Positions 40,539 through 59,258 are shown, counted from the first letter of the stretch. The stretch: 64,000 bases of DNA from Gemmatimonadota bacterium (GCA_040905425.1 JBBDRO010000103.1:13959-77958); one strand, 5' to 3'. Numbers and translations: made by a program. Notes: generated from the sequence alone by a model not told the origin.

Positions 40539-40713
40539 GCACGCGGCTACGTGATCGGTCCAGGTGGGGTCGGTAGCGCTGATCGGTAGCCCGGGCGTCC
40601 TGCGTCGGTGGCGATGTCCGGAACATCCGATTACATTCAATCAGCCATGTGTCTGAGCCCGGACCCTGGGACCCTGCCGCGCAGCCACATTCCCACCTCA
40701 GCCGAGCATCAGC

Positions 40714-41971
40714 ATGCCGCAGGACGACGAAACTCGCGTAATTGCCACCAGTGGCAGTCAGGACCATGACGCGCTGGTCTGCAGCGTGCTGGCCGAACGT
40801 TACGAGATCGAGGAGCTGTTGAGCGTGGGCGCGATGTACCTAGGGCGCATTCTCAAGGTCACCCGACGCGACGCCATCAAAGGGCTCCATCCGGACCAGG
40901 ACCGGGATCCGGACGCCAACGCGTGTATCCACCGCGGTGCTCGCAACGTAGGGGCCATTCGCCATCCTAACGTTAGTACCAGCTACGACTTCAGCGAGAC
41001 CGACAGCGGCCTGCAATACCTGGCCGTGGAAGACGTGGCTGGGGAATCTCTGAAGGAAGTTATGGACCGGGAGCCTGCCAATCCCCCAGCGTCCCCGGGC
41101 ACGCTCCCGCTGGAGCGGGTTCTGCGCATCGCGGATCAGGTGGCGGCAGCGCTCCAGGCCGCCCAGGAGGCGGACATCGTACATCGGGACCTGAGTCCCG
41201 GCAACATTATGATCGTCCCCGGCCACGCGGGTGAGGACGCAGTCAAGGTAGAGGATTTCGACCTCTCCAAGGGATCCCGGGCCGGGATCGACCCGGAGGT
41301 CACGCGCGTGGGCTTCGGGGGGGCATGCCGGAGCATATGAGCCCGGAGCAGCTCTGGGGCGGTGAATTGGACGGCCGTAGCGACATTTACTGCATGGCGG
41401 TCGTCCTCTATCGCATGCTCACCGGCGGCCCCCCGTTCCGGGAGGATACCACGCAGGAAGTCGCCTCACCGACGCGCCGCTCCTCCCTCGCACGGAGATG
41501 GCCCCTGAGCGCACCTTCCCGGACGGTCTTCAGCAGATCCTGGATTGCGCGTTGAAGTGCAAGGCCGCCGAGCGCACCCCCACCGCTGCGGTGTTCGCTA
41601 CCGAGTTGCGGGAACTCGTGGGTTGGCACGTGGCGGGTAGCCCTTCCATGGAGGTGCCTGCTACCCTGGTGGCTCCCCTTACCGCACCGGGGGATGCGCG
41701 CCGGGTGCTCGACGGCTACCGTGAGAAGCTGGCATTCGATTCCCCCTCGGATCCCACTACGCTCCGGGCCATGCAGGATACCACCACCACGTTCCACGGC
41801 ATGGCCGAACTAAACGCCCGGGATCGGGGGCTCACTGTGTTCATCTCCGGGAACGTCTCGTGCCTGGTTAGTGATCGATCCACGTGCCTCACATGGGCCG
41901 GGCGTGCAGTGGCTGCGGACGACTCGAGGGTCAACGGGACGCTTCGCCCCCTATGCGAATCCATCGGCTGA
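40714..41971 (+). pseudogene. Ser/Thr protein kinase homologue, split over three reading frames and with degenerate catalytic motifs
   Basis: Frame a (40714-41340) carries subdomains I-VII: RYEIEELLSVGAMY, DAIKGL, IRHPNV, HRDLSPGN (Lys to Ser), EDFDLSK (DFG to DFD). Frame b (41325-41555) continues with MPEHMSPEQLWGGELDGRSDIYCMAVVLYRMLTGGPPF. Frame c (41498-41971) continues with LTDAPLLP...FPDGLQQILDCALKCKAAERTPTAAVFATEL. The shifts fall at the G7 run (41317-41323) and near 41455-41465. Confidence 0.75.
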
Positions 41972-42873
41972 TGACCAACCCGATAACCGACATGAGGCCG
42001 ATGCAGGTCACCGCCTCCGGACGCACGGACACCGGGCAGCGCCGCGGTGACAACCAGGACAGCATGCTCATTGCCGATCTGAGCGCGTCGGGCGGCTTCG
42101 TGCTGGGCACCGACGGCGCCGCAGCCGGCGCGGGCAGTTTTTCACTGGGTGTCCGGGGCGCAATCCTGTTGGTAGCGGACGGCATGGGTGGCGCCGCTGC
42201 CGGCGCCCTGGCCAGCCGCCTGACCGTGAATCACATCCATCAGGCAATCCTACGCCATTGGGTGGCAGAGGGCGCGGCATCGGAAACGTTTCCGGACCAT
42301 CTGCGCGCCGCGGTGGAGGGCGCCGGGGTTCGTGTTGCCAAGGCTGCACGTCAGGATCCGTCGTGCACGGGCATGGGCACGACCGCTACCCTGGCCGGGC
42401 TCCTGGACGGTGTGGTGCACTTCGCCCAGGTAGGTGACAGCCGCGGGTATCTGGTGCGGGACGGTGTGGCCACCCAGCTTACCCGCGACCAGTCCGTGGT
42501 CCAGCAGCTCGTGGACGCCGGCACTATGACGCCCGAGGAAGCGGAGCGCAGCATTCACAGCAATCGCATCCTGCAGGCCGTTGGCGTGACGGAGCCGCTG
42601 CAGGTGGTAGTGAGCACGCACGAGATGCACTACGGCGACGTTCTCCTCCTCTGCTCCGACGGGCTGAGCAGGGTGGTGTCGGCCCGAGAGATGGCGGCGG
42701 CGTTCGGGCGGGAGGTGGACGTGACCGCCGCTTCAGATGCGCTGGTAGCGCTAGCCAACGAGCGCGGGGGTCCTGACAATATCACCGTCGTGGCGGCGCG
42801 GGTGGACGCGGGCATGCAAGAGACTCCAGGGGCGGATCCGGACACGCTCGAATTTCCCTCGCCGCTCCTGTGA
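41971..42873 (+). CDS. PP2C-family Ser/Thr protein phosphatase
   Basis: SGRTDTGQRRGDNQDS, LLVADGMGGAAAG, GMGTTA, AQVGDSRGYL, LLCSDGLS, GGPDNITVV. ATG 41971 overlaps the stop of kinase frame c (TGATG). Confidence 0.85.
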   Translation: MTNPITDMRPMQVTASGRTDTGQRRGDNQDSMLIADLSASGGFVLGTDGAAAGAGSFSLGVRGAILLVADGMGGAAAGALASRLTVNHIHQAILRHWVAEGAASETFPDHLRAAVEGAGVRVAKAARQDPSCTGMGTTATLAGLLDGVVHFAQVGDSRGYLVRDGVATQLTRDQSVVQQLVDAGTMTPEEAERSIHSNRILQAVGVTEPLQVVVSTHEMHYGDVLLLCSDGLSRVVSAREMAAAFGREVDVTAASDALVALANERGGPDNITVVAARVDAGMQETPGADPDTLEFPSPLL

Positions 42874-42897
42874 GGCCGCAGTCGGTCGGCCGATGAG

Positions 42898-43335
42898 ATG
42901 GCCGTAGATATCCGCTTGCGGGTGCTTTCGGACGCCCTGGCCGGCCAGGAAGTCACCAATCAGAGCGCTCCTGTGCCCATGGGTTGGGGTCAAGGACTGG
43001 AGCTGCGCTTCCATCCCGCCCGGGGCCTCGATCCGCCCGCCCGCCAGGCCACGGTGGCGTTGCTGCAAGATCGCTGGATTCTACAGAACCTGCGAAGTCG
43101 GAATGGCACGTTCGTGGCAAGCCGCCGCATCCGTAGACCCGAGACGCTCCAGCACGGGCAGCCTTCACTGGTCCCGAGGGCCCGGAGGTCGATGTCCAGC
43201 TGGCCGGCGTCGGCGTGGGCGCCGAATCCACGCGTGCCTTCTGTGCACCGGACGCTGCACCCGCCCCGGCTCCCACTCCCTCCATCGACTGCGCTCCCTC
43301 GGGCACAGCCGTTCTCCGGCGGGCCTGGCCGCTGA
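42898..43335 (+). CDS. FHA-domain protein, degenerate and probably disrupted
   Basis: FHA-like core: WILQNLRSRNGTFVASRRIRRPETLQHG. The pThr-binding GR and SxxH positions are replaced (MGWGQG, PARQAT). After about 43160 the more protein-like continuation (FTGPEGPEVDVQLAGV...) is in another frame, which ends at 43469 where the transposase remnant begins. Confidence 0.5.
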   Translation: MAVDIRLRVLSDALAGQEVTNQSAPVPMGWGQGLELRFHPARGLDPPARQATVALLQDRWILQNLRSRNGTFVASRRIRRPETLQHGQPSLVPRARRSMSSWPASAWAPNPRVPSVHRTLHPPRLPLPPSTALPRAQPFSGGPGR

Positions 43336-43459
43336 CGCATACCATGTGCGCCAGACCTAAGTGCCACTGTGCCGTTTGCCGAAGGGCAGGGGCATCCGCG
43401 CTGGCAGTTCGGGTGGCGACCTCCACGGAGCAGCAGCTGGGCGTGGAGCCCACACGCCG

Positions 43460-44020
43460 TTCGGCCTGATGTGCATCCAGATCATCGCTGCGGGCAGCGA
43501 TGTCTACCTGTTGGCCCACAACGCGCGGTTCGCGAAGCCAGCAACCAATGCGGCGGACCACCACCTGTCGCTCAACCCTGCTCTCAACCCGGACGACGTC
43601 TTCTGCTTCGGGCACAGGCGGACGGTCGCTAACGATTTCGTGGTACAATTCGAAAAGCGCGGCCTCCAACTCGATCGCAAGGCACGCGGCCGGGTCGCGG
43701 TATGTAGCCGGGTGCTGGTGCGGGAAACAGACGACGGCCGACTGCGGGCAATCTATCCATGCCCCGACGGGAGGGAGCACGAATGCACGTGGACACCAGC
43801 CGCACCCGAACGAAAACAGCGCCACCGCCGAAGCCGCCAGCTGCGGGCCCACGTAAACCGCCGCCCAAACCGCGGCAGATCACCCGTGGCGGCAAGCAGG
43901 CAGGATCGCTCTCGCCAAGCAAAGGCGCGTACGGTGCGGCCCCGACTGGCCTCACCCAGGCTCAACCCGAGTAGGGGACATTTCTATCCGTACTTGACAG
44001 CCGCCGCCGAACATGATTGA
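43460..44020 (+). mobile_element. truncated transposase remnant (C-terminal third of an rve/DDE-type, IS481/ISNCY-like transposase)
   Basis: YLLAHNARFAKPATNAADHHLSLNPALNPDDVFCFGHRRTVANDFVVQFEKRGLQLD...VLVRETDDGRLRAIY matches the remembered C-terminal pattern 'yN.RFa..P....daHrpl.....L..if......RtVsnD.vv.f.n..lQl'. The HTH and DDE catalytic parts are absent, and I found no inverted repeats. Confidence 0.55.
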
Positions 44021-44185
44021 CACTGCTGACACCTGAGGTGTACCATACTAGGGTCGACGCTCGTCCGTAGCACCACCGATACGCTCCAAAGCGTTCCAAC
44101 TATTCCCGGTGTCAGGAACATCCGATGATGGCTTTCCTCTCTGCTGCTCCAGCTACCGCTGGCCGCGACGGGTGCACCGCGGCTC

Positions 44186-46201
44186 ATGGCTGACGCGACT
44201 GACAGATTCGGCAAGTTCGAGATCCGCGAAACGCTGGGTCAGGGCGGCTTCGGCCGCGTGTACCGTGCCTACGACACGGTGCTCCAGCGCGAGGTGGCCA
44301 TCAAGGTCTTCACGGTACACGATCCATCCATCAAGCAGCGGTTCCTGCGCGAAGCTCAGATAGCGGCCAGCCTGAGCCACCCCAACATTGTCGCGATATT
44401 TGATCTCGGCGAGCATGACGGCGACCCGTTCATCGTACAGGAATATCTGGCGGGTGAGGATCTGGAGACGATCATCCGCCGACGTGATGCAATCAGTCTG
44501 CTCACGAAGCTAAACTACCTAATCGGTATCGCCGACGGCATTGCCTTCGCCCACCGGCACGGCGTCATTCACCGTGACATCAAGCCGCAAAACGTGCGGA
44601 TCCTGACGGACGGCTCGGTACGGGTGCTCGATTTCGGGATCGCGAAGCGCGCTGTCGAGGACGCGACCGCACTGACGCAGCCGGGGTCCAGCGTCGGTAC
44701 TGCCGGTTACATGGCCCCCGAGCAGCTGCGCGGGGAACAGATCGATCACCGCGTCGACATCTTTTCCTTCGGCGCACTCGCGTTCCGGCTGCTCACACTC
44801 AGAAGGGCGTTCGAGGGCGATTCGCTGGCGAGCACGCTGTTCAAGATCGTACACGAGGAGGCAGTCTGGCCCTCTGGCGTACGTGAGACCTACCCACCAG
44901 ACCTCACCGAATGCATTGACCGCTGCCTCGCCAAGAAGGCGGAAGATCGGCCCAGCAGCTGCAAAGAAATCGTCGCCGCCTTGCGTGACGTTAAGCGGTC
45001 GGTCGGCTCGGGCGCTGAGGCCGCTGCCATGGTCACCGGCCAGGCTGCGGGCGCGGATCCAGATCAGCAAGCCACCCGGCTCGCGCCGGCCAGAGCTGCC
45101 GCCTATATCCCACCTACTGCACCGTTCAACCCACCGGCGGCAGTCGGCCCGCGGCAGCCCCGGCAGGCGGCATGGTGGAACGCAGCAGTAGGAAAGCGGT
45201 CTGGGGCCGCCGCGGCGGCGTTTATAATCATCGCGACCGCGGCGATGGCTTCACAATCGCTCTCCGGCCGCGCCGCGATCACCAATCCGGACGCGGCTGT
45301 GACCGACGCCACCGACTCGGCCGACGGCGTCGCTGCGCCCGGTCCCAGCGATTCTGCGGACCTCGGCGGTTCGGCGGGCGCACCGGCCGCGGCCACTGAT
45401 GCGTCCGCCGAAGAGCCCGACAACGTACCGAACCAGCCAACCGCGCCTACCCGTGATACCGCCGCGCCGGACCCGGCCGAGCAGCCCACCAACGAGAGAT
45501 CTGCCGCGTTTGCACTCCTCGTTGACGTCGCCAGCCTCGACGGTGGTCTGCAGAAGGGTCTGGCAGCCGCGCTTCGTGGTGACGATCGCATCGATCTGAC
45601 CGCCACGGGCAGTTCTGCCGACCTAGTTATCAGCCATCAGGGCGCTGGCTCGATGCTCCAGGTCAGGGGCAGCGACGGCACTCTGCGCGGAGCTGTCAGC
45701 AGCGCGGACCCGGTGCGCGCGGCCGAGTCGCTCGCCGGCACGATTCGACACGAACTCGGCGTTATGGGGTTGATGCGCCTGCAGAACCCTGCGCAATCGT
45801 TTGCCGTTACCATCGCCCTCGTGGGCGGCCGCCGCACGTTCAGGGTGGGTGATGCCATCGAATTCACGGTCCGCACGCAGCGGCCGGGCTATCTTACCCT
45901 GGTCGATATCGGTCCCACCGGACAGGTCTTCGTGCTGTATCCGAATCCCGATATGCGGTTGGGTGAGCTGCCGGCGGCGAGCGATATCCGTGTTCCGAGC
46001 GGCGCGCATCCGGGCTGGGTGGTCGCACCGCCGGTAGGCCGCGGTGCCGTGCGGGCGATCGTGACATCCAGCCCGCTGTTTACCGAGGGCAGTCAGCCGG
46101 GTAGCGCGGCTGCGGCTGCCCACATACACGAGCAGCTCGCCGCGAGCGCCGGGAGCAGTTGGGCAACGGCACTCGTGACGTACAGCATGACTGACCGCTG
46201 A
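44186..46201 (+). CDS. transmembrane Ser/Thr protein kinase with an extracytoplasmic DUF4384-like domain
   Basis: Intact Hanks motifs GQGGFGRVY, VAIKVF, REAQIAASLSHPNIV, HRDIKPQN, DFGIAK, GTAGYMAPEQ. TM segment AAAAAFIIIATAAMA, then a low-complexity Ala/Asp/Pro linker. C-terminal FRVGDAIEFTVRTQRPGYLTLVDIGPTGQVFVLYPN...GRGAVRAIVTS. Confidence 0.85.
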   Translation: MADATDRFGKFEIRETLGQGGFGRVYRAYDTVLQREVAIKVFTVHDPSIKQRFLREAQIAASLSHPNIVAIFDLGEHDGDPFIVQEYLAGEDLETIIRRRDAISLLTKLNYLIGIADGIAFAHRHGVIHRDIKPQNVRILTDGSVRVLDFGIAKRAVEDATALTQPGSSVGTAGYMAPEQLRGEQIDHRVDIFSFGALAFRLLTLRRAFEGDSLASTLFKIVHEEAVWPSGVRETYPPDLTECIDRCLAKKAEDRPSSCKEIVAALRDVKRSVGSGAEAAAMVTGQAAGADPDQQATRLAPARAAAYIPPTAPFNPPAAVGPRQPRQAAWWNAAVGKRSGAAAAAFIIIATAAMASQSLSGRAAITNPDAAVTDATDSADGVAAPGPSDSADLGGSAGAPAAATDASAEEPDNVPNQPTAPTRDTAAPDPAEQPTNERSAAFALLVDVASLDGGLQKGLAAALRGDDRIDLTATGSSADLVISHQGAGSMLQVRGSDGTLRGAVSSADPVRAAESLAGTIRHELGVMGLMRLQNPAQSFAVTIALVGGRRTFRVGDAIEFTVRTQRPGYLTLVDIGPTGQVFVLYPNPDMRLGELPAASDIRVPSGAHPGWVVAPPVGRGAVRAIVTSSPLFTEGSQPGSAAAAAHIHEQLAASAGSSWATALVTYSMTDR

Positions 46202-46243
46202 GCTTGGCGCGACGATTCATTCATTTCTACACGGGGCCGTTCG

Positions 46244-49171
46244 ATGAAAAAACTCACATTGTCGTTGCTGTGCGTGGGAGCGCTGGCGCTGGGCGCTGTC
46301 GCAACACCGCTGGCGGCTCAGGCTCAGTCAGGACTCGAGATCACGATCGAGGAGCCCACTGACTGGCAGGAGGAAGGCCCGGGCCGCCGCGGTATTGTGG
46401 TCCAACCGAGATCCTCCATTCGCGTGAGTGGCGTCGCACGGCACCCATCCGGCATCAGCGAGCTGCTGCTCGACGGCAACCGCGCCTCCATTGCGCCGCA
46501 GCCCGATGGCACGGTCCGGTTTCTCGGCTACGTGCTCGTGCGGGAGAAGATGACGCACGCGGAAATCACGGCCTTGACGCCGTCCGGAGAGAGGGCGACG
46601 GCGCGGTATTCGATCTCGCCGACGGCGCCGCCGGCGCCGAGGGCTGAGTCGCCGGAAGAGGCCTGGAACGCCGCGGGGAGTGATTTCCGTGGCAAGAGGT
46701 GGGCGGTCGTCATCGGCATCAGCGAATACCGGGACCCCGGCGTTCAGGGACTGAAGTATGCCGACCGCGATGCCAAAGCCGTCTACGACTTTCTCCGGTC
46801 TGATTTGGCCGGTATGGGTGGCTTCGCGCCGGAAAACATCCAGCTTCTGCTGAATGAGGACGCGACCTATCAGAACATGCGCGTTGCATTATTCGATTTT
46901 CTGAAGAATGCCACGGAAGAGGATGTAGTCTACATCTACTATGCGGGCCATGGTGCGCCCGATCCGGATCGTCTCGAGAACCTGTATTTGCTGCCATATG
47001 ACGCCAACTCGAGGCAGCTCGGCGGCACAGGATTCCCGATGGAGGACATGAATCGAGCTCTCCGCAACGTCGCAGCTAAGCACAAGATATTGATCACGGA
47101 CGCTTGCCACAGCGGTGGCATTACTGCAGAGGGGACACGCTCGCTCGCGGTCAACAGAATCAACGAGGTCTTCCTCGAGCAGATGAGCACGAGCACCGGT
47201 GTACAGGTCATGTTCACGGCGAGCGCCAGCAATCAGGAGTCGCTCGAGGACGAACAGTGGGGTGGCGGTCATGGCGTGTTCACCCACTACCTGCTCGAGG
47301 GTCTGAAGGGCAGCGCAGATGAGGACGGCGATCACATCGTCAGCATCGGCGAGGCCATGGATTACACGAAATCGCAGGTCACGCGCGAGACGAGGCAGCG
47401 GCAGGTGCCGCAGATCAGTTCGACGGCCTACGACTATCGATTTCCCGTCGCATTGGTGCTGCCCGGTGCCGAGGTGCCGGACATACCAATCGATGAGATC
47501 CGGAAGGCGAATGCGCTCAGCAACATCATGACAAGCGCGTACGAGTCCGCATGGGTGCCGCCCGACTCAATTCTCACTGTTGCAGGGGGTACAGACACCG
47601 TCGCGATCCATCTGGCCAACGACCGCACCGACAGGTTACCGCCGGAACTGGTCGAGTTTAGCAGTAGCAATACCTCGGTCGTGACGGTCGACGACGAAGG
47701 CGTTATCACGGGTCAAAACGGCGGTCTAGCCCAGATCCGTGCGCAGGGGCTCAATCGCAGTGTGACAGTTTCCGTGAGAGTTCTCCCCAGGCCGGAGCAG
47801 GTCAGTTTCTCGCCGGCTGCCGATGAGATCCAGCTCGTGGTCGGTGAGCCGCTGAAGATTAGTACCGATCTGCTGCTGGAAGGCGACAAATGGATGCGCG
47901 GCGTTCCGCCGAAGCTCTCCGCACCGGACCCGAACGTCCTGCGCTCCGACGGCGGCGGCCAGTTCACCGGCGAGCGTGTCGGCACGACCACGATCCAGGC
48001 CGATATCGGCGGCGTGACCAAAGAATGGCGGGTTGAAGTCATTGCACCGCAGGTCGCGATAAAGGGCCCGCCTATGGCACTACCCGTCGGTGATTCACTT
48101 CGCCTCACCGCGTCCCGCACCCGGCCGGATGGATCGGTGCTCGGCGACGCAGCCAACGTGATCTGGCGCAGCAGTGACACGACAAAGGCTGTGATGCGGG
48201 ACGACATCCTGCACACGCGCGGCATCGGCAAGGTCACATTGAACGCATTCCTGGGCGACTCGGAGGACAGTGTCACTGTTTTCATCCTGGGTGACCTGCT
48301 ACTCGGCGTAAGGGGCCGGATGGGTGAAACAATCCTCTCCGTCTCCATGCACAGCGGCGAGGCCGTCCCGCTACTGCCGGACACCCTCAAAGCCTCGGAG
48401 CCGGCACTGTCACCGGACGGCAGTCGCATTGCCTTCGTCGTCGACAACAGGATCCACATTGCCGACACGGATGGCCAGAATGTGCGGCGGCTGACCCCTG
48501 ACATGGAAGGCGTGCTGGGATTCCGCGCATCCCGGTACGAAGAGCATACACCGGTGTGGTCGAACGATGGGGCGCGGGTCGTCTACGTGTCGAACGCGCC
48601 GGGCAATTACCAGATCCTCTCGATTGCGCCCGACGGCGGCGACGTCCGGCGTCTGACAGAAAGCAATTCGCAGGAGCGTGACGTGGCCACGTCGCGGGAA
48701 GCTCCGCGGATCGCGTTCGAGCGCATGGTCTCCGCCGATGACACGGACATCGTCGTTGCGCTGTCGGACGGCACACAGGCGGTTCAGTTCACCAGCAATG
48801 TGCCCGCGGCCATGGTCAAGTTCAGTGAGCACAAGCCGCAGTTCGTCATCGGTACGCCGTTCCTCATTTTCGCCCGTCGCAGCACCGGCCGTGACGGCGA
48901 GGCGCTGGCGCTGATGGACATTTCGAACGGCAAGGCGGGGGGGGAGCTGGTGCCGGCGATCCGCGACCATGTGATCCTCTACGCGGTGTCTCCGGACGGC
49001 CGCTGGATCGCATATCACCAGCGTGCGCTGTGGGGCCGCAAGAACAGCAGTCTCACGCTGATCGACATTGAAGGTAAGCCTGTGAAGAACCTGCATATCG
49101 GCGACGGCGTCGAGATTACCCATGTCGCGTGGGGTGCCTCGCCTCTCATCAGCAGCAGGGAGGACCAGTGA
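46244..49171 (+). CDS. secreted caspase-family (peptidase C14) protein with Ig-like Big_2 repeats and a TolB-like PD40 beta-propeller
   Basis: Signal peptide MKKLTLSLLCVGALALGAVATPLAAQA. Caspase His/Cys dyad YYAGHGAPD ... LITDACHSGGI. Three Big_2-like units (SSSNTSVVTVDDEGVITGQNGGLAQIRAQ; GERVGTTTIQADIGGV; WRSSDTTKAVM...GIGKVTLNAF). PD40 repeats LSPDGSRIAFV, PVWSNDGARVVYVS, YAVSPDGRWIAY. Confidence 0.85.
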   Translation: MKKLTLSLLCVGALALGAVATPLAAQAQSGLEITIEEPTDWQEEGPGRRGIVVQPRSSIRVSGVARHPSGISELLLDGNRASIAPQPDGTVRFLGYVLVREKMTHAEITALTPSGERATARYSISPTAPPAPRAESPEEAWNAAGSDFRGKRWAVVIGISEYRDPGVQGLKYADRDAKAVYDFLRSDLAGMGGFAPENIQLLLNEDATYQNMRVALFDFLKNATEEDVVYIYYAGHGAPDPDRLENLYLLPYDANSRQLGGTGFPMEDMNRALRNVAAKHKILITDACHSGGITAEGTRSLAVNRINEVFLEQMSTSTGVQVMFTASASNQESLEDEQWGGGHGVFTHYLLEGLKGSADEDGDHIVSIGEAMDYTKSQVTRETRQRQVPQISSTAYDYRFPVALVLPGAEVPDIPIDEIRKANALSNIMTSAYESAWVPPDSILTVAGGTDTVAIHLANDRTDRLPPELVEFSSSNTSVVTVDDEGVITGQNGGLAQIRAQGLNRSVTVSVRVLPRPEQVSFSPAADEIQLVVGEPLKISTDLLLEGDKWMRGVPPKLSAPDPNVLRSDGGGQFTGERVGTTTIQADIGGVTKEWRVEVIAPQVAIKGPPMALPVGDSLRLTASRTRPDGSVLGDAANVIWRSSDTTKAVMRDDILHTRGIGKVTLNAFLGDSEDSVTVFILGDLLLGVRGRMGETILSVSMHSGEAVPLLPDTLKASEPALSPDGSRIAFVVDNRIHIADTDGQNVRRLTPDMEGVLGFRASRYEEHTPVWSNDGARVVYVSNAPGNYQILSIAPDGGDVRRLTESNSQERDVATSREAPRIAFERMVSADDTDIVVALSDGTQAVQFTSNVPAAMVKFSEHKPQFVIGTPFLIFARRSTGRDGEALALMDISNGKAGGELVPAIRDHVILYAVSPDGRWIAYHQRALWGRKNSSLTLIDIEGKPVKNLHIGDGVEITHVAWGASPLISSREDQ

Positions 49172-50133
49172 TGCATCGCGCAGTTGTGATTGTTGCCGTG
49201 GTCGCTGCCGGCACCTTGACCGTGCCGGCCGAGGCGCAGTTTTCATCGGATATTCCCGGTGTTCCGCGTGCCTCCGTGCCGTTCCGTGGCAATCACCAGA
49301 ACCGTACGGAGTGGACGTTTGCTGGCTACAAGATCCCCGGTGCGGCAGACGTCGGCGATACGACGGCACTCGGCGTACGCGTGACCTTTGGCCGCAGCTA
49401 CCGAATCAGGAACGTGTTCGAGCTCGGTTTTGACATCTCGATCATCGATGGCCTCCTTGAACGGCCGCCGGAGGATACGTTACCCGGCGCCCCACCCGGG
49501 CCGGGCAGTTACATCCGCGGGTCCGGCTTCTACGGGCTACGCATTGGCGGCAAGTGGAGACCATTTTCCGCGCTCGACCTGGACGGCTATGGCTGGGAAG
49601 GCGCTATCGGCGCTGGGGTCCAGCCTTCACTTCGGCCGTTGATCGGTGCCGAGAGCTATGACGACAGCACGCGCTTCGGGGGCCAGTTCTCCGGTGAGGC
49701 GGAGCCCGGTCTGCGGGGCAGCGACCCGTTCGGCAGGATCCATATGGCCACCTTCTTATCTGGCATGGCGAGCTACAGGTCGCAGCGTATCCTGGCTGAT
49801 GTTGCGCTCGTCGCCGAAGCCGTCCGTGAGTCGGACGAAGCGGATGGACCGTCGCCGCTCGTGAAATTTGACGGTGTCTCGCCGCGCGGAGGTGTGATGT
49901 ACCGGCTCACACCTAGCCTGGCGCTCGGCGCGAGCTACTGGGGCAATGGCGCCCCGCCGTGGCGGGACCAGATCTCCGTGGGCGTTCCGGGCGCGGCGAA
50001 GGGAGAACACTACGGCTTTATAATGACGCTCGGTTCCCGGCCTGAGAGTGGCACCGATTTCATGGTGTCAACGCCGACCGGCGACTGGGGTCAGTCCGTG
50101 CGGCTCTACATACGGGGTCGCTCGACGCGCTGA
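49171..50133 (+). CDS. hypothetical secreted beta-rich protein (possible outer-membrane barrel)
   Basis: ATG 49171 overlaps the caspase stop (TGATG) and is preceded by GGGAGGA. Signal peptide VVIVAVVAAGTLTVPAEAQ. Alternating hydrophobic beta-strand-like segments, but no canonical C-terminal Phe. Confidence 0.55.
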   Translation: MHRAVVIVAVVAAGTLTVPAEAQFSSDIPGVPRASVPFRGNHQNRTEWTFAGYKIPGAADVGDTTALGVRVTFGRSYRIRNVFELGFDISIIDGLLERPPEDTLPGAPPGPGSYIRGSGFYGLRIGGKWRPFSALDLDGYGWEGAIGAGVQPSLRPLIGAESYDDSTRFGGQFSGEAEPGLRGSDPFGRIHMATFLSGMASYRSQRILADVALVAEAVRESDEADGPSPLVKFDGVSPRGGVMYRLTPSLALGASYWGNGAPPWRDQISVGVPGAAKGEHYGFIMTLGSRPESGTDFMVSTPTGDWGQSVRLYIRGRSTR

Positions 50134-50576
50134 GGCGTATGCCGGCGCGGCAGACCCCCGCCGCGAGGGCAGGCATGGTGAACAGTAGTGGATCGCCGCG
50201 AGTACTCGTACAAGCCACGCTGCCTGCCCGGCGGAGGCCGCTTCACCTTCGTCGCGGGAAGGGGCGTCGATACCTGGATGGCGCTTGTCCCGGCCGTGCA
50301 CAGCAAGCTGGAGATGCACGACTGGCGGGAAGTGGGAGGGCGGCTCGCTGCCGTTCTAGCGCAGTCCATCCCAGGGACGCTCGCCGCTCTCGGCCGCCGA
50401 GAGCATTTGCGTAAGCAGGATTGCCACCTCGACCCGTCGCATGGTAAGGTTCAGCTGCTGCTGGATGACGCGGCGGATGGGCAGTGCCTCCTGCTCGGGA
50501 GATACGCTGCATCGGCTGCGGTCAGGTCGGCACACGGTGTTGCAACGCCCGCCCCAGCCGCCCATAATCGACAGCC

Positions 50577-51470
50577 ATGAAGGAGCCCCAGCACCTCACC
50601 ACCCTTTTTGCCGACGTCAGCGGCAGCACCCGCCTCTTCGAGCAGCGCGGTGACCACGAAGCCCGCCGCATCATCGCCGCCGTCCTCGAGGCGCTGACGG
50701 AAGTGGTGCAGGGCTACAGCGGGCGCGTGGTTAAGACCATCGGGGACGAAGTGATGTGCACCTTCCCCGGCCCCACCCAGGGTCTGCTGGCCGCCTGCGA
50801 CATGCAGCAGCGCGTGGCGCGCGAGCCGGATTTCGCCCGGGACGACATCGGCATCCGGGTAGGTTTGCATCACGGCGCCACGCTCGTCGAGGATGGGGAT
50901 ATCTATGGCGACTCCGTGAACACGGCGGCCCGCATGGCCGCCCTGGCCAAGCGCGAGCAGATCATCACCACCACGGCCACCCTGGAAGGCGTCACGTCCG
51001 GTGTACATCTGAGCGCCCGCGCCCTAGGCCAGGTGCGCGTCCGCGGCAAGCAGCTCCCCGTGGAGGTGGTCGACATCATCTGGCAGGAAGACACATCGGA
51101 GGTCACAACGGTCCAGCAGGTGGTGCGGGTGGGTGGCGAGCCTGCGGATCTCCAGCTGCGTCTCCGCCACAGGGACACGGAGATTATCTTCACGCAGGAC
51201 TCGGAGCCCCTCTCCATAGGCCGGGACGCCGGGAATTCATTGACAGTCCCCACGGAATTGGCCAGCCGGAACCACGCCGTGTTGGAATGCAGGGGAGCCT
51301 ACTTCGCGCTGGTGGACCGCAGCACCAACGCCACCTTTGTGCGCTTCGGGGACGACGAAGAGCTCCGGGTGCATCGGGAGGAGATCCGGCTCCGTGGGTC
51401 GGGAACCATCAGCCTAGGACAGGTCGCGAGAAGCAACCCGGCGGATTTGGTATATTTTGAGTGCGCATAG
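50577..51470 (+). CDS. class III adenylate/guanylate cyclase fused to a C-terminal FHA domain
   Basis: Cyclase motifs: LFADVSGSTRLFE, VKTIGDEVMCTF, GLHHGATLVEDGDIYGDSVNTAARM. FHA: LSIGRDAGNSLTVPTELASRNHAVLE...LVDRSTNATFV. Confidence 0.85.
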   Translation: MKEPQHLTTLFADVSGSTRLFEQRGDHEARRIIAAVLEALTEVVQGYSGRVVKTIGDEVMCTFPGPTQGLLAACDMQQRVAREPDFARDDIGIRVGLHHGATLVEDGDIYGDSVNTAARMAALAKREQIITTTATLEGVTSGVHLSARALGQVRVRGKQLPVEVVDIIWQEDTSEVTTVQQVVRVGGEPADLQLRLRHRDTEIIFTQDSEPLSIGRDAGNSLTVPTELASRNHAVLECRGAYFALVDRSTNATFVRFGDDEELRVHREEIRLRGSGTISLGQVARSNPADLVYFECA

Positions 51471-51808
51471 CGAGGAACGGCGCCACCCGACCGCAGGTCA
51501 CCCGGTTTCCGCGGCCTGTGTCTGGCGCCTGTTGCCGGGGCAGGGCTCGTCGGCTGTGACAACGGGTTGTTCGTAGCACCCGCGAACCAGCCAGTCGTCA
51601 GGGTGGATGGCAGCGGTATCGTACGCGCAACCGGTGTGGGCGCGGTGGAGATCATCGTGCCAGGCCCGCCGAAGGGGGAACGATAGCGGCCATTCCGGTG
51701 GCCACCGTGGAGACTTTTTCGCGTAACGGACATAGCAGCGGGAACTGGCGTCCGGAAGGCGTGGAGGTACTTCTAAGTCTAAGGACCGCTTCGGCTTGGA
51801 CGTGGATC

Positions 51809-51843
51809 GAGCCCGGGGGCGCGGCAGTGCCGCCCCCGGGCTC
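51809..51843. terminator. GC-rich stem-loop (13-bp perfect stem), 49 nt downstream of the minus-strand operon
   Basis: gagcccgggggcg-cggcagtgc-cgcccccgggctc. It is located between the convergent cyclase gene and the oxidoreductase gene. Confidence 0.55.
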
Positions 51844-51891
51844 GAAAACAACAGGCGGTCCTGCTGAAGGTGACCGATACGTGACGAGTTG

Positions 51892-54243
51892 CTAGTCGAT
51901 GACTTCCACCACCACTGGACCCGACGCCCTGGCCATACACGCCAGTCGGCAGGCGCCCGGCTCCAGCCCCTTCCTCTTGAGGGTCTTGAGCTCCTTTTCG
52001 GCGGGCTCGCTCAGGTGCTCGGCGCCCTCCAGAATGCGAATGGCATCGCAGCCGCACATGCCGATCCAGCATTCGTAGTCGATGTCCACCTCATTCTCGT
52101 CGGCCCATTCGAGCAACGTCTGGTCCTCGGCCAGAGGCCCTGCCAGTTCCTGTCCCTGAAAGGTGACGTGTGGACCGCTGGCCACTGGCGCCGCCACGGC
52201 CGCGTGGCTCTGCTGCTGGACCGCGGCGGCCGGCGGTGGCTCGAGCTTGGCTGCCGGCGGAGGGGGCGGTGAGGAAGTGGGGGCTACTGGCGGCTCCAAT
52301 GCGGGCGGCGCCACTGCTGGCATCGAAGTGGTCTTCTCGGGAAGGTCCTCACGTAGCCGCACCTCCAGCTGCTGACCGCCGATGCGGAAGACATCCCGGT
52401 GCCCGAGCTGCCGCTCCCCCTCGATCTTCAGGTAGGTGCCGTTTCGGCTTCCGAAGTCGTGAAGCTGAATTTCTCCGTCCTCGACCGAGAGGGAGAAATG
52501 GAATCGGGAGAGGGTGTGGTCGTCGTTGTCCAGGAGCACGTCGGGGTCTGACTTGCCGCCTGATCGTCCGAAGACGGTGGTGTCCTTCAATAGATACACG
52601 GCCACCTGTCGCCCGCGCGCGTCATAGTGGACGAGCTCGGGCGGCGCTCCGCGCACCTGGCGGGAGACCACGAGGATCTGCTGTCCGGCCCGGATCAGGT
52701 CGCTATGGCGAACGCTCACGGCACGATCGGGGAGCACCTTCTGGTAGGTACCTGCCCGGCTGCCGTCGTCCCGGAGGAAGTAGCCGCTGTCCCTCCGGGT
52801 GAGGGAGGCGTGGGCCTCCGAGAGCAGCGTGTCGTGTGGAAAGGCCAGGTCCGTACCTGTGCGCCCCAATGTGGTCATGCCACGGGGGTTCAGCCGAAAC
52901 TCCTCGGCTTCAACGCCGGCGGGCGTCAGCAGAACCAGGTATGCGCCCTCCGCGGCAGCGGCTCCCGGCTCCGGAGTTACGTCCGCCTCCGCCGCGGCGT
53001 CCTCCTCGTCTCCCCGCAGGCCTAGGACACCGCTTACCCGGCCGTCCGAGGTAGTGTCGCCGGCGAGGGGCTCCGCGTCGCGAATCACCACATTCACCTC
53101 GGCGCGGCCCTCGAGGCGCTGGTTGATGACCTCCGCCACGAACACTCCGTCGCGCAGACCGCTCTTGATGTTGCCCCGGTGCTTGACCTGGCGGAAGGTG
53201 TCGGGCGACCCGGCGAAATCGTCCGTCTCCAGGTAAGACTGGCTCAGCAGGTCTCCGATCACGTAGACGTTCGGCTGCTGCGTCTCCAGCAGTGGCGTCA
53301 CCGCCATGGTCTTCTTTCCCTTGGTGCCACCCGCCACCATGTCGACGCCTATGGTCGAGAGGAGGGCCTCGGGAATGTCCTCGCCGATGCAAGCGATACA
53401 CTGTGTCTTTGCGAACTCCAGGTGAAGCGTTTCCGGCGGCCGACCTGCGGGCGTCTTCCGGTCCACCCGTAGCGACAACACCTCCGTGCGGTCGGGAGTC
53501 GTAACAACGGCTACGGGCTCGCTCTCGGGGAAGTGCCGGATGTTGCCGTTGCCGATGTAAGCTTCGAAGAACTGCTCGGCGAGTGCCTTGGAGACCCGCG
53601 GCATCTTGGTGCCACGGTACGCCCAGTAGACCGGGCACTCGTCACCCGCGCCCACCTTTGCCCTCGAGATGGCCAGGACCGCCTCGGCGGCCGACGTGCC
53701 GCCGCCAACCACCAGCACCGGGCCCTTGGCATAACGATCCGCCTCATCGAGCCGATAGGCAATCCCGTCGGTGTTGCCGGGGATGTCGAACCGCCGGGGG
53801 ACTCCCCGTCCCAGCGCCACCACCACGTGCCGGGCTCGGAAGGTCACCTGTTCGCTCGCCTTGTGGTCCCACGCCACCACGTTCCACAGGTCATCGGCAC
53901 GCTCCATGGCGGTTAGTTCCACGCCGGTCCGAAAGGGTACGCCGAACGCACCGTAAAGCGCCTTCCAGGAACTGCACATCTCATCCTTGTCAATGGGTCC
54001 GAACTGGAGCGCTGCTATCATCTTGCCACCGGCCGGAAACCGCATGCGGTCCCCACCGCCGAAACTGGGGAGGATTAGCTTGTCAGACGGATAGTCCCGG
54101 ATTCGCTTCAGGATGTCATCGAAATCGATGACCAGAACCTCGAGCCGCAATTCCCTGGCGCGGAAAGCCGCGGCGGTGCCTGCGGGTCCGCCGCCGATCA
54201 CCAGGACGTCCAGTATCTCGGTGCCGCCGTTGATGTTGCTCAT
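51892..54243 (-). CDS. FAD/NAD(P)-binding oxidoreductase - FHA - FHA - 2Fe-2S ferredoxin-like fusion protein
   Basis: Dinucleotide motifs VLVIGGGPAGTAAAF, VLVVGGGTSAAEA, NVYVIGDL. FHA1: TTLGRTGTDLAFPHDTLLSEAHASL...SRAGTY. FHA2: TVFGRSGG...LSRFHFSLSVEDGEIQLHDFGSRNGTY. Then a Pro/Ala linker. C-terminal Cys cluster YECWIGMCGCDAIRI...GACRLACMA. Confidence 0.8.
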   Translation of the reverse strand: MSNINGGTEILDVLVIGGGPAGTAAAFRARELRLEVLVIDFDDILKRIRDYPSDKLILPSFGGGDRMRFPAGGKMIAALQFGPIDKDEMCSSWKALYGAFGVPFRTGVELTAMERADDLWNVVAWDHKASEQVTFRARHVVVALGRGVPRRFDIPGNTDGIAYRLDEADRYAKGPVLVVGGGTSAAEAVLAISRAKVGAGDECPVYWAYRGTKMPRVSKALAEQFFEAYIGNGNIRHFPESEPVAVVTTPDRTEVLSLRVDRKTPAGRPPETLHLEFAKTQCIACIGEDIPEALLSTIGVDMVAGGTKGKKTMAVTPLLETQQPNVYVIGDLLSQSYLETDDFAGSPDTFRQVKHRGNIKSGLRDGVFVAEVINQRLEGRAEVNVVIRDAEPLAGDTTSDGRVSGVLGLRGDEEDAAAEADVTPEPGAAAAEGAYLVLLTPAGVEAEEFRLNPRGMTTLGRTGTDLAFPHDTLLSEAHASLTRRDSGYFLRDDGSRAGTYQKVLPDRAVSVRHSDLIRAGQQILVVSRQVRGAPPELVHYDARGRQVAVYLLKDTTVFGRSGGKSDPDVLLDNDDHTLSRFHFSLSVEDGEIQLHDFGSRNGTYLKIEGERQLGHRDVFRIGGQQLEVRLREDLPEKTTSMPAVAPPALEPPVAPTSSPPPPPAAKLEPPPAAAVQQQSHAAVAAPVASGPHVTFQGQELAGPLAEDQTLLEWADENEVDIDYECWIGMCGCDAIRILEGAEHLSEPAEKELKTLKRKGLEPGACRLACMARASGPVVVEVID

Positions 54244-55214
54244 TGCTGGTGCAGTCTGAACTCGAGGTGCGGACCCAGTAGAAAACTGGCGCCCGGCGTA
54301 AGGGCCGCAGTTTCAATGCGGCGGTCGCCTATAAACGTGCCGTTGCGGGCACCCAGGTCCACCAGCTGAACGCCGTGCGCGCCCACGCGTACGATCGCGT
54401 GTTTGCGGGACAGCCACATGTCGGGATCCTCGATGCGGATATCGGCGTCAGAGCCCCGGCCGATGACGTTGTCACCCGGTGCGAGCGGAAACTGGAGAGG
54501 TCCGCCCGTGGGCAACAACACCACCAGTTCGTAGGCGGGCACGGCAGGCGCGACCCGGGTGGCGTCCTCACCACCGGGGGGCGCTGGCTTGGGCGCTCGG
54601 TGATCCACCGGCGGCGCAGGCGTCTTGCCGAGGTCGGGGAGCACGCCAAACCCGGCCATGTCCACGACAGTGTGCTGATTCCCGAGCGGAGCAGCGGGGG
54701 ATGGCTGCGCGGCCGCATCCGGCTCCTCCGGGCGGTTAGCGCCGCCCGCTGAGCCATTGCCCTCCGCCGGATCTTCCACACCCGGCGCAGGCGGCCCGAG
54801 ATCCGGCAGCGCCCCGAAGCCCATCATGTCCACCACCGTGTGCTCCGCGTCGGCTAACGCCTCGGGCGGCGAGGTGTCCGGTGGCGGAGAATCGGGCGGC
54901 CGGCGTACCATGCTGCGACTGAACACGAACTCCTGTCCGGCCACCTCGATGACATGCATCCGCTCCAGCGCCGCGCTGCTGCGGAGCGGCTGCCCGTCCA
55001 CCTGAGCGCTTCCACCTGCGGCCTCCTCCATCACGAAGCCCCCCTCCACGTGCCGGATGCGTGCGTGCACGGCGGCCAGGTCCGCGTCCTGTCCCACCGC
55101 TGGCCTGCCCGCCCCATCCACACCGAGGGCGGTGTTCCCAGCCAGTTCGAAGGTCGATCCAGCCAGCGCTCCTGTACGGCAGACCAGGCGTGCTGTGGGC
55201 GTCAGTGAAGTCAT
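54240..55214 (-). CDS. tandem FHA-domain protein
   Basis: The C-terminal FHA is canonical (NVIGRGSDADIRIEDPDMWLSRKHAIVRV...LGARNGTFI). The N-terminal FHA-like domain is degenerate (AAVHARIRHVEGGFVMEE). A Pro/Ala-rich linker carries a near-duplicated 'HTVVDM.GFG.LPDLG..PAP' segment. The stop overlaps the next start (ATGA). Confidence 0.8.
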   Translation of the reverse strand: MTSLTPTARLVCRTGALAGSTFELAGNTALGVDGAGRPAVGQDADLAAVHARIRHVEGGFVMEEAAGGSAQVDGQPLRSSAALERMHVIEVAGQEFVFSRSMVRRPPDSPPPDTSPPEALADAEHTVVDMMGFGALPDLGPPAPGVEDPAEGNGSAGGANRPEEPDAAAQPSPAAPLGNQHTVVDMAGFGVLPDLGKTPAPPVDHRAPKPAPPGGEDATRVAPAVPAYELVVLLPTGGPLQFPLAPGDNVIGRGSDADIRIEDPDMWLSRKHAIVRVGAHGVQLVDLGARNGTFIGDRRIETAALTPGASFLLGPHLEFRLHQQ

Positions 55215-55227
55215 GGCTACCTGGGGC

Positions 55228-56793
55228 TCAGCGGGACAGGGTGGACCAGTGCGACTTGTCCGGATGGAACTGATGACAGGACGTGCAGCTGGCGGGCGCA
55301 GTCCTGCTGCCGTGACACGAGCGGCAGCTCTCGATGGTGGGGAGATTCACGACCTCCGCCCGGTCCTGAGCAGCCGTTGCGTCCTCCCCCGACAAAAGCA
55401 GCTCGCGCGTGGGAATTACGTCGTGGCAGTCCATGCAGCGGGCGTGCACAACGTGCGCCCGGTGATCGAATTCCGCGCGCGCCAGACCGCCGTGGGCCGG
55501 TTGTTGCACGCGCCTGATGGTGGCGCGCTCCACCACGTGGCACTGGACGCACGGCTCGATGATGGCGCTGATGACGGCCTCGTATGCCGCTACGTCCATC
55601 GTCCCGGTAGCCACCCCGTCGGCCTCGTCGGCGGGGCCCACTCCGAAACGTGTGGCGTCCAGCGGCGCGTAGGGATCCTCCAGGCGGGCCTCCACGGCGG
55701 CCAGCAACTCCGACAGTTCGGCGATCTCGCGCTGCACCGCCGGCGAGGGATCGCCCCGCAGGCCCTCGATCTGCCTCGCCAGGGTGGCGATTGCCTCCCG
55801 GTGCAGCGCGCGGACCTGATCGGGCGGCACCTCCGCCGAGGTGTCCAGGAGGTCAGCCAGCTCAGCGCCCGGGTAGAGGTCGCCGCGCAACTTCCGGAGG
55901 TTGTGGAGGATCCACGGGTCGGCGTGGTAGACCGGCCGCTTCACCACGGAACCACCCAGATCGGTGAACTCACCGGCGTTCCAGAAGTATGCCCACTGGC
56001 TCCCGGGCTCACCGGCGCTGCGGATGTCACCCAACGTGGCAACGCCAGGGCCGCTGCCGGAGGCCACCCGGGCGGGCTCCGTGGCGTCGCTCCGAGAGAG
56101 ATGGCAGGCATCACAGTGCCGGTCGAAGGCCAGGGGCTGAAAGCCCTTCCCGTCCGCCTCAGGCGTGTGGCAGCTCAGGCACGCCGCCTCGGGCTCCACC
56201 AGTTCGCTTTCCGCCATCACCTCTCGCACGTGCTGCACGTGGGCGAATTTCAGATTGGCCACGCCCGCGTTGTCCTCCACGGCAAAATCGAATTCCGGGT
56301 GGTCCTTTTCAAAGGAATTCACCTCGTGGCAGGATACGCACCGGGCATCGGCCACTTCCTGCAGGGAGGCCTCTCTGCCCTGGTGCTCACGGTGACAGGT
56401 GCCGCAAGCCACCTCGTGGACATCGGCAGCCGAACGGTCCGCCTCCCCGGAGCGGTACATATAGTGGCGCGCGAACGTGTAGATCCCGAGCTCGCCGCCG
56501 GACTGCTGATGACAGCTCAGGCATTTGGCGTCGGCCGTGCCTTGAAGCGGCGTGTGGCAAGCGGCGCAGTCCCCGTCGAAGATAGCGTGACTGTCCGTGA
56601 GCGGCGCGCCGGCAATGGCCGTCCCCCGGCCCAGGAAAGCGCTGGCGAGCAGGAGCACGGCCAGGACGAGGCCAGCCAGCCCTCCGCATGCAAAGAGACG
56701 GCTGCGGCTCGTGAGCCGCGTGTACCGGTCCGCCACCGGGAGTCGGTGTGGCGAGAAGAATCCCTTCTCGAAGCGACGATCTTCCGAGCCCAC
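55228..56793 (-). CDS. membrane-anchored decaheme c-type cytochrome
   Basis: Ten CxxCH motifs read in the translation: CAACH, CLSCH, CGTCH, CVSCH, CLSCH, CDACH, then CVQCH, CMDCH, CRSCH, CTSCH. N-terminal TM/signal anchor LAGLVLAVLLLASAFL. GTG start 15 nt after the upstream stop. Confidence 0.85.
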   Translation of the reverse strand: MGSEDRRFEKGFFSPHRLPVADRYTRLTSRSRLFACGGLAGLVLAVLLLASAFLGRGTAIAGAPLTDSHAIFDGDCAACHTPLQGTADAKCLSCHQQSGGELGIYTFARHYMYRSGEADRSAADVHEVACGTCHREHQGREASLQEVADARCVSCHEVNSFEKDHPEFDFAVEDNAGVANLKFAHVQHVREVMAESELVEPEAACLSCHTPEADGKGFQPLAFDRHCDACHLSRSDATEPARVASGSGPGVATLGDIRSAGEPGSQWAYFWNAGEFTDLGGSVVKRPVYHADPWILHNLRKLRGDLYPGAELADLLDTSAEVPPDQVRALHREAIATLARQIEGLRGDPSPAVQREIAELSELLAAVEARLEDPYAPLDATRFGVGPADEADGVATGTMDVAAYEAVISAIIEPCVQCHVVERATIRRVQQPAHGGLARAEFDHRAHVVHARCMDCHDVIPTRELLLSGEDATAAQDRAEVVNLPTIESCRSCHGSRTAPASCTSCHQFHPDKSHWSTLSR

Positions 56794-56808
56794 GCGGTGC
56801 CTGCCAGG

Positions 56809-59246: not shown

Positions 59247-59258
59247 GGGCGTTCCGAC

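Follow-up and report, generated by a model that had tools for sequence, protein, structure and literature searches.

A 64,000-nucleotide stretch of the metagenome-assembled genome of a high-G+C Gemmatimonadota bacterium (GCA_040905425.1, JBBDRO010000103.1:13959-77958; hereafter the window) carries on its plus strand three adjacent genes whose predicted products probably span the cell envelope. The first (44186-46201) encodes a 671-aa Ser/Thr protein kinase with a DUF4384 ectodomain, the second (46244-49171) a 975-aa secreted protein that joins a caspase domain to immunoglobulin (Ig)-like domains and a TolB-like propeller, and the third (49168-50133) a predicted outer-membrane beta-barrel of 320 aa, counted from the ATG at 49171. 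All three are intact open reading frames (ORFs), and the caspase protein is 100% identical to the NCBI entry 'MAG: caspase family protein [Gemmatimonadota bacterium]'. An original prediction, made from the nucleotide sequence, had described these genes as an envelope module centred on the caspase and the kinase. Its description of genes and domains is confirmed by our analysis and its interpretation is partly supported, while the module itself, which recurs in related genomes, has been found so far only in Gemmatimonadota.

The catalytic domain of the kinase (Pkinase, PF00069; residues 11-263; 44216-44974, plus strand) scores 172.8 bits against a cut-off of 31.7 (E 1e-50), and the translation contains the motifs GQGGFG, VAIK, HRDIKPQN, DFG and APE that identify a Hanks-type enzyme. 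A single transmembrane segment follows (residues 339-357; 45200-45256, plus strand; Kyte-Doolittle 1.91 in a 17-residue window), preceded by four basic residues and succeeded by an acidic linker, an arrangement that fits an N-in/C-out topology with the catalytic domain in the cytoplasm. The linker, of about 80 residues and rich in Ala, Pro and Asp, leads through a region of about 100 residues, which we call X, into DUF4384 (PF14326; residues 551-630), where the full profile (positions 1-81) is matched at 55.2 bits against a cut-off of 27 (E 8e-15). Since DUF4384 lies C-terminal to the sole membrane segment, sequence features predict that it is extracytoplasmic. Custom hidden Markov models (HMMs) recover both X (45512-45817, E 5e-25) and DUF4384 (45824-46099, E 5e-31), which make up a putatively periplasmic X-DUF4384 module (45512-46099, plus strand); a sequence search of the PDB with this module returned no match. 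The intact kinase with one membrane segment and an extracytoplasmic DUF4384-like domain is therefore as originally described.

The caspase gene starts 43 nt past the last base of the kinase stop codon, leaving 42 intergenic bases, and its product begins with a signal-peptide-like sequence (MKK...AQA↓QS, residues 1-28, judged from sequence features). Peptidase_C14 (PF00656) matches residues 151-394 at 84.7 bits against a cut-off of 21.4, PD40 scores 50.5 bits against 20.9 and Big_2, marginally, 25.2 against 22.8; with that reservation, every domain originally called is upheld by HMM. An AlphaFold2 model (pLDDT 85) resolves a beta-sandwich N-terminal domain (NTD, residues 32-126), the caspase (151-405), a long helix (416-434), three Ig-like (Big_2) domains (440-682) and the propeller (685-963). 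Within the catalytic domain (46691-47458, plus strand) the GHG motif of His236 and the DACHSGG motif of Cys288 align with SGHG and DSCHSGG of Arabidopsis metacaspase 4 (AtMC4, 6w8s), placing Cys288 on Cys139, and the four residues His236, Cys288, Asp176 and Asp286 are invariant in 25 orthologues, so that the intact His/Cys dyad of the original prediction is retained. By sequence alignment, Asp176 falls where metacaspases have the Asp of their C-x-x-D motif, and Asp286 stands two residues before Cys288; the acidic S1 residues of TbMCA2 are Asp95 and Asp211 (PMC6426788, PMC4357240). An acidic S1 pocket formed by Asp176 and Asp286 would predict cleavage after Arg or Lys.

Foldseek comparison of the caspase protein gave TolB/Pal and the caspase-Ig3 region of MALT1 as best matches. 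The PD40/TolB-like propeller (48296-49162, plus strand; HMM E 3e-132), which always lies immediately 5' of the barrel gene, matches TolB chains by phmmer (E 4e-5) and TolB by Foldseek (E 1e-15, TM-score about 0.55 by target length), and also matches the DPPIV_N and Tricorn_N profiles. The Big_2-rich part resembles surface-layer and adhesin proteins by Foldseek. Hundreds of other proteins of Gemmatimonadota and Longimicrobia share the NTD beta-sandwich and caspase half at 46-54% identity; these paralogues (P0031-P0120) are secreted, carry TPR, PPC or WD40 tails in place of the Ig-like domains and propeller, and represent a large unexplored expansion in the phylum.

The barrel gene begins on the caspase stop codon, as originally noted, its ATG at 49171 sharing the A of TGA (TGATG) and standing 6 nt downstream of a Shine-Dalgarno-like GGGAGGA (49158-49164, plus strand) read from the sequence. 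An alternative start, GTG at 49168, would give the 4-nt GTGA overlap typical of orthologues, but the ATG is better spaced from GGGAGGA and is the start in public annotation. The product had been described as secreted and beta-rich; the signal peptide and beta structure stand, and the protein can be specified further as a predicted outer-membrane beta-barrel. AlphaFold2 returns a closed barrel of about 12-14 strands (pLDDT 86, pTM 0.82), the strands are amphipathic, with hydrophobicity alternating along them, and the signal-like N-terminus is conserved in 31 barrel sequences, most with an Ala-x-Ala↓Gln-type cleavage site. The mature N-terminus (QFSSDIPGVPRAS in the window) is likewise conserved, several positions being invariant, as is the C-terminus (RLYIRxRSTR or similar). 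Foldseek gave 165 PDB matches at E<=1e-3, and the best 50 of the 165 are almost all outer-membrane barrels, led by FapF and followed by porins, FadL/TodX, type IX secretion- and BAM-associated barrels and NalP. With TM-scores of 0.4-0.6 (up to 0.55-0.62 for FapF), the modelled likeness to known barrels is generic, and a profile search of the PDB found no sequence relative. Nor is the protein a TonB-dependent receptor, having only 320 aa, a PF00593 score of 22.6 bits below the cut-off of 27 and no Plug match. The family comprises 34 clusters, all those with a source name coming from Gemmatimonadota, and their contigs match in length those of the approximately 30 clusters of full-length caspase-propeller proteins.

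The presence of FapF, a polypeptide transporter, and of the NalP autotransporter barrel among these fold matches raises the question of a dedicated secretion pair, in which the large Ig-rich caspase protein reaches the surface through the barrel, the two working like a split autotransporter or a FapF-type channel, and acts there as an adhesin or surface protease. The conserved translational coupling of the two genes and the resemblance of the Big_2-rich passenger to surface proteins would suit such a pair. However, TM-scores of 0.4-0.55 denote a generic likeness among barrels and bring no sequence relative in the PDB with them, a folded six-bladed propeller is ill-suited as passenger of a 12-14-strand pore, and the periplasmic position of the partner DUF4384 module speaks for action in the periplasm. 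We consider export to the surface quite improbable.

Conservation of the module across lineages

To the window we compared 28 related loci, and two further loci taken from listings without DNA, all annotated by tblastn, Pfam and HMMs built from the module's own families; a lineage was defined as a barrel cluster at 90% identity, giving 21 lineages. The family is rare among species representatives, a scan of a genome collection yielding one locus only. As the original prediction had proposed looking for, the three components are syntenic elsewhere. In every locus that shows both genes, the barrel gene lies directly 3' of the propeller gene, and in nearly every lineage its start codon falls 4 nt before the end of the upstream stop, so that the two genes are very probably co-translated. 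The propeller and barrel pair is the invariant core of the module, rather than the caspase and kinase, as had been thought; the kinase is dispensable and caspase-less versions exist. That three functionally unlinked genes lie together by chance is hardly credible. The window kinase does differ in place and orientation from that of most loci, and a fragment of an insertion sequence adjoins it; yet the same combination of genes is seen again in 21 lineages, at identities as low as 40%, which excludes chance adjacency, the start/stop overlaps are conserved, and the presence of DUF4384 follows that of the caspase domain.

This last association is seen in 11 of the 13 lineages with a visible caspase domain and enough flanking sequence, where a DUF4384 partner gene is adjacent. 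In four of them (L011, L012, L026 and the P0139 locus) the partner is a zinc ribbon-kinase-transmembrane-X-DUF4384 protein, usually encoded convergently and just downstream; in four others (L001, L018, L020, L028) it is a signal peptide-caspase-X-DUF4384 protein; in two (L003, L005) it is cut by the contig end; and the window accounts for the remaining one. Two lineages (L004 and the P0019 locus) have no such partner. A kinase-DUF4384 gene also adjoins the barrel in L006, L009/L015 and L013, where the propeller proteins are cut at the contig end. Three caspase-less lineages (L014, L027, L016/L023) keep the Ig-like domains, the propeller, the barrel and an adjacent kinase, the ectodomain of which consists of Big_2 repeats or PEGA/CarboxypepD_reg-like domains, with DUF4384 in none of the three (11/13 vs 0/3; Fisher p about 0.02, phylogeny ignored). 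A kinase is adjacent in 12 lineages, these caspase-less ones included. DUF4384 therefore tracks the caspase domain, while the kinase tracks the propeller-barrel core.

An exhaustive search with the kinase ectodomain recovered 840 representative proteins. Among the best 69 of the 840, DUF4384 was matched in 68, a caspase domain in 47 and a kinase domain in seven, which agrees with the association of DUF4384 with both in the original prediction and with published co-occurrence with orthocaspases and kinases (PMC6426788, PMC8283722, 10.1101/2025.01.12.632604). The 47 caspase fusions have a signal peptide first and no later membrane segment, and caspase-X-DUF4384 proteins would thus be wholly extracytoplasmic; in the seven kinase fusions a single membrane segment lies near residue 350. 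X-DUF4384 is, then, primarily a caspase appendage. Some Csx30 proteins, which the caspase-like protease Csx29 takes as substrates, likewise end in a DUF4384 domain (10.1101/2022.08.17.504292). Several proteins of about 380 aa (P0185, P0187, P0201, P0203, P0206, P0208, P0220) consist of a signal peptide, an EPxxW segment and X-DUF4384, with no catalytic domain, and the EPxxW motif is also found in the NTD beta-sandwich of the large caspase; such proteins show that these periplasmic domains are shuffled as a toolkit.

The kinase of the window seems to have arisen by such an exchange. Its neighbours, the caspase and barrel proteins, are 65-73% identical to those of L001, L018 and L020, where the partner is caspase-X-DUF4384, and in a neighbour-joining tree the X-DUF4384 module of the window groups with the caspase-fused modules of these same loci in 198 of 200 bootstraps. 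The kinase domain, by contrast, shares only 31-35% identity with the orthologous partner kinases of other loci, against 52-74% within that group, and is no nearer to them than to unrelated kinases; it lacks their N-terminal zinc ribbon, and its gene lies upstream on the same strand, whereas partner kinase genes usually lie downstream. The simplest reading would be an independent domain swap, in which a membrane-anchored kinase replaced the secreted caspase on an existing X-DUF4384, and a kinase would then have been joined to this ectodomain at least twice.

These patterns bear on the possibility that the module serves extracytoplasmic protein turnover or nutrient acquisition, the secreted caspase degrading periplasmic or external proteins, the propeller gating substrates, the barrel acting as a peptide channel and the kinase being a loose regulator or bystander. 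Such a function would accord with the DPPIV_N and Tricorn_N matches of the propeller, with the likeness of the barrel to diffusion and transport barrels (porins, FadL/TodX, FapF), with the hundreds of secreted NTD-caspase paralogues, and with the richness of the window in peptidases (M1, M19, M20, M42 and S13); extracellular protein degradation by bacterial metacaspases has already been suggested (PMC4933709). But almost every lineage has a kinase or DUF4384 protein next door, fusions having arisen independently more than once, and the caspase-less versions retain propeller, barrel and kinase, so that the conserved function needs no proteolysis. Furthermore, three Ig-like domains stand between caspase and propeller, an arrangement that differs from the gating propellers in S9 peptidases and tricorn. 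We think a turnover function unlikely, if one that deserves consideration.

Other genes adjoin the module in particular lineages. Adenylate/guanylate cyclases with CHASE2 domains adjoin kinase-less loci, namely L020/L021 (L020 14687-17524 and 558-2699) and L028 (11606-13690), in the latter starting 3 nt after the end of the caspase-DUF4384 gene; these cyclases may be an alternative transmembrane output. Genes for MlaE, an ABC ATPase and MlaD, of outer-membrane lipid transport, occur at L001 (15867-18234), L020 (12135-14511) and the P0019 locus, being directly 3' of the module in two lineages and adjacent on the opposite strand in the third, and MacB/FtsX genes adjoin the module in L017 and the P0139 locus. 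Just 5' of the caspase gene in the closest relatives of the window (L001 9101-9997, L019 1326-2213, L020 5393-6262) lies a gene whose conserved, secreted product of about 290 aa matches no family and is 45-54% identical among the three loci; the window has no counterpart.

Setting of the genes in the window

Pfam scans, which took in the surroundings of the module (ORFs at about 30-64 kb) together with most of 0-28 kb, assigned the remaining window genes mainly to housekeeping functions (Suf, IspH, peptidases, a GlcDEF-like oxidase, MFS). G+C content at third codon positions (GC3) is 0.71-0.78 in the ORFs between 40.7 and 50.5 kb, compared to about 0.9 upstream and 0.80-0.87 downstream, and with the insertion sequence fragment described below this suggests that 40700-50500 is a remodelled or acquired segment.

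The part of this segment that precedes the module (40714-44020, plus strand) is partly decayed. It opens with a split second kinase (40714-41971, plus strand), recognised from frame shifts by tblastn and from degenerate motifs, the pieces of which lie at 40768-41313 (frame 1), 41310-41462 (frame 3) and 41498-41971 (frame 2). Its Gly-rich loop is absent, the catalytic motif reads HRDLSPGN, and DFD stands in place of DFG. With 39-42% identity in the N-lobe, it is nearer to the orthologous partner kinases of L009, L011 and L012 than is the intact kinase of the window, and the split gene appears to be either a pseudogene or an assembly error. There follow a PP2C phosphatase (41884-42873, plus strand; Pfam) and a short ORF with an FHA match (42898-43335, plus strand; Pfam), which covers profile positions 21-61 of 67 only, passes into Pro/Arg-rich sequence thereafter and is probably truncated or frameshifted. 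The ORF immediately 5' of the kinase gene (43361-44020, plus strand) encodes a C-terminal fragment of an ISNCY transposase (NCBIfam NF033594, E 5e-10, profile positions 271-354 of 368), the remainder being Arg-rich and non-coding-looking, and was rejected as a module member for this reason. So too was the ORF at 50188-50580, which has no family match and looks non-coding.

A promoter-like site precedes the kinase gene (44017-44046, plus strand; TTGACA-18-TACCAT, 10 of 12 positions matching), but the scan gave two sites against 1.2 expected, which makes it weak evidence. A 20-nt near-repeat occurs at 40612-40631 (CGATGTCCGGAACATCCGAT) and 44107-44126 (CGGTGTCAGGAACATCCGAT), each copy 60-85 nt 5' of a kinase gene start, with no further copies in the window or in the related loci; it could be a common operator or a chance match. 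Rfam and tRNA searches of the window returned no matches, and a regulatory RNA reading was dropped.

About 440 bp 3' of the module, and with its own promoter-like site (50540-50568), lies a gene for an adenylate/guanylate cyclase-FHA protein (50577-51470, plus strand; Guanylate_cyc E 4e-17, FHA E 1e-8 by Pfam), a possible reader of phospho-Thr. Pfam places FHA proteins near the module at 42898, 50577, 51892-54243 and 54240-55214. The region from 50577 to 64000 forms an FHA-rich redox cluster, which comprises, besides the plus-strand cyclase-FHA gene, several minus-strand genes. One encodes an FAD oxidoreductase that carries a 2Fe-2S domain and two FHA domains, another an FHA protein of 324 aa; the rest of these products are several multihaem cytochromes and a protein that combines three cyclic nucleotide (cNMP)-binding domains with 4Fe-4S clusters. 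The composition of the cluster suggests control of electron transfer by phospho-Thr and cyclic nucleotides.

The setting also bears on whether the genes form a conflict or defence module, which would sense attack on the envelope by phage, predators or contact-dependent weapons and answer through the kinase or through a periplasmic caspase cascade, possibly a suicidal one. Defence systems often include caspase-like proteases and Ser/Thr kinases, architectures vary by domain swaps, GC3 falls across 40.7-50.5 kb, and an ISNCY fragment is present in the window. Mobile or defence genes flank three related loci: AbiEi/AbiEii and a mutator-type transposase at L025 13700-17776, DDE_3 at L026 16926-18020, and parts of IS66 at L028 861-2909; upstream in L026 there are also an ECF-type sigma factor and a CHAT-TPR protein. 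PADLOC returned generic matches to the kinase (PD-T4-6, MAD6), caspase and cyclase, with nothing for the barrel or PP2C and no match specific to any known defence system, and the NCBIfam matches to MAD6 and PglW are far under their cut-offs. Against a defence role, moreover, a NTPase, nuclease or other typical effector is absent, and many loci stand amid housekeeping genes (Mla, biotin ligase, DnaX). The self-/non-self response originally suggested thus finds generic domain matches alone, and we regard a defence function as doubtful.

Proposed function

We propose that the genes constitute a conserved envelope module which couples the state of the outer membrane or periplasm to cytoplasmic signalling, by docking or by proteolysis, and we give this reading about an even chance of being correct. 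The barrel would tether the propeller to the outer membrane much as Pal does TolB, a role suggested by this analogy and by translational coupling. The three Ig-like domains could serve as a spacer that projects the caspase across the periplasm, where the caspase and NTD would meet X-DUF4384 near the inner membrane and dock onto it or cleave it. In the kinase version of the module, either event would alter Ser/Thr phosphorylation in the cytoplasm, and the nearby PP2C phosphatase and FHA proteins could read and reset that phosphorylation. The envelope location first suggested for the caspase and DUF4384 is consistent with the signal peptide and predicted topology; that caspase activity is reported by the kinase, in that direction of signalling, is something we only infer.

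Several observations count against this proposal. Signal peptides and topology are predictions from features of the sequence, and the barrel does not end in the C-terminal aromatic beta-signal usual for outer-membrane proteins, which may not be the signal of Gemmatimonadota. Two caspase-bearing lineages have no DUF4384. Four lineages, the window's closest relatives among them, have no kinase at all, DUF4384 being borne there by a second secreted caspase, and kinase signalling is therefore not intrinsic to the module. FHA neighbours, which the original prediction had drawn into the pathway, and PP2C neighbours are not conserved: L023 has both, in an FHA-PP2C-kinase array preceding the core, and the near-identical L016 has PP2C-kinase before it (PP2C by tblastn). 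They were rejected as conserved partners; since they recur in a single further lineage, the putative link with FHA proteins downstream would be specific to the window. The lineage counts are small and ignore phylogeny. Finally, the conserved N-terminal motif of the barrel, with its possible Arg cleavage site (...PGVPR↓AS), is equally conserved in loci where the caspase is absent, and so is not explicable as a caspase substrate; a caspase cleavage site was rejected as the sole explanation, and the motif is more likely a propeller-binding peptide or plug.

A narrower form of the proposed envelope coupling can be stated. The caspase would be an Arg/Lys-specific orthocaspase, tethered to the barrel through the propeller and the Ig ruler, which recognises and cleaves its cognate DUF4384 ectodomain and so reports breach or deformation of the envelope, for instance by phage or competitors. 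The cleavage would act through the inner membrane to switch the Hanks kinase; sister loci would instead use it to activate their second caspase, as a protease cascade in the periplasm. We hold this version to be rather unlikely. Were it true, DUF4384 would be a general caspase-recognition domain, which would explain its presence in the Csx30 substrates of the CRISPR-associated Csx29.

Bacterial caspase homologues are abundant, but a substrate or partner is known for almost none, and DUF4384, among their commonest companions, has no assigned role. The module supplies genetically linked candidate partners (a protease, a DUF4384 ectodomain, an outer-membrane anchor and a kinase output), together with natural controls in its caspase-less and caspase-for-kinase versions, and is hence a tractable way to learn what DUF4384 does and how bacterial caspases act outside the cytoplasm. 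It could show whether caspase-type proteolysis in that compartment feeds bacterial Ser/Thr phosphorylation, and it adds to the few candidate systems in which a Hanks kinase would serve sensing across the envelope.

Comparison with known systems

Three parts of the module belong to established families, namely Peptidase_C14, the Hanks kinases and DUF4384. The caspase protein resembles orthocaspases in its p20-type caspase domain, its His/Cys dyad and its two acidic S1 residues. Fusions of DUF4384 or PD40 to orthocaspases, and N-terminal signal-like helices, have already been catalogued (PMC8283722, PMC3501461, PMC6426788). The window differs in that its caspase domain belongs to a secreted protein of 975 aa which also contains three Ig-like domains and a TolB-like propeller, in the translational coupling to an outer-membrane barrel, and in carrying DUF4384 on a separate partner protein. 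Our literature searches found no description of this gene module, which is made of known domain families in an arrangement not described before.

The 'Proteo1' kinases of the bacterial serine/threonine kinase atlas (10.1101/2025.01.12.632604) share the architecture of kinase, single transmembrane segment and extracytoplasmic DUF4384, a comparison made by architecture alone; the DUF4384 module of the window appears to descend from a caspase-fused one.

Foldseek matches the barrel best to FapF, which belongs to the functional amyloid system of Pseudomonas. The likeness is that of generic small barrels, with no sequence similarity and no fap genes, and the window protein is not a FapF family member. 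FapF works alongside a periplasmic cysteine peptidase, FapD; this is a C39-like protease, whereas that of the window belongs to C14.

TolB-Pal offers a structural parallel, since there too a six-bladed PD40 propeller in the periplasm has its partner at the outer membrane, and residues 685-963 match TolB and TolB/Pal complexes best in both sequence and fold. The window protein is nevertheless not a member of the TolB family (TIGR02800, 49.3 bits against a cut-off of 343): it lacks the TolB N-terminal domain, a beta-sandwich, caspase and Ig-like domains standing there instead, and its partner is a barrel, whereas Pal is a peptidoglycan-binding lipoprotein. No tolQRA or pal genes were found in the neighbourhood scanned with Pfam.

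In Pseudomonas aeruginosa, TagQRST-PpkA-PppA-Fha1 forms a threonine phosphorylation pathway that responds to perturbation of the envelope (PMC7817224). The Pfam scans of the window, at about 30-64 kb and over most of 0-28 kb, found no TagQ-like lipoprotein, no TagR resembling FGE-sulfatase, no TagST ABC transporter and no type VI genes; homology is limited to the kinase, PP2C and FHA domains, and the module of the window includes a protease where the Tag pathway has none. The two would be alike in outline, however, since in each a Hanks kinase that crosses the membrane once would act below outer-membrane and periplasmic components, with a PP2C phosphatase and an FHA protein responding, and the gene order of L023 (FHA, PP2C, kinase, periplasmic proteins, barrel) is comparable. 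By this analogy, the Tag pathway would be the nearest functional analogue of the module.

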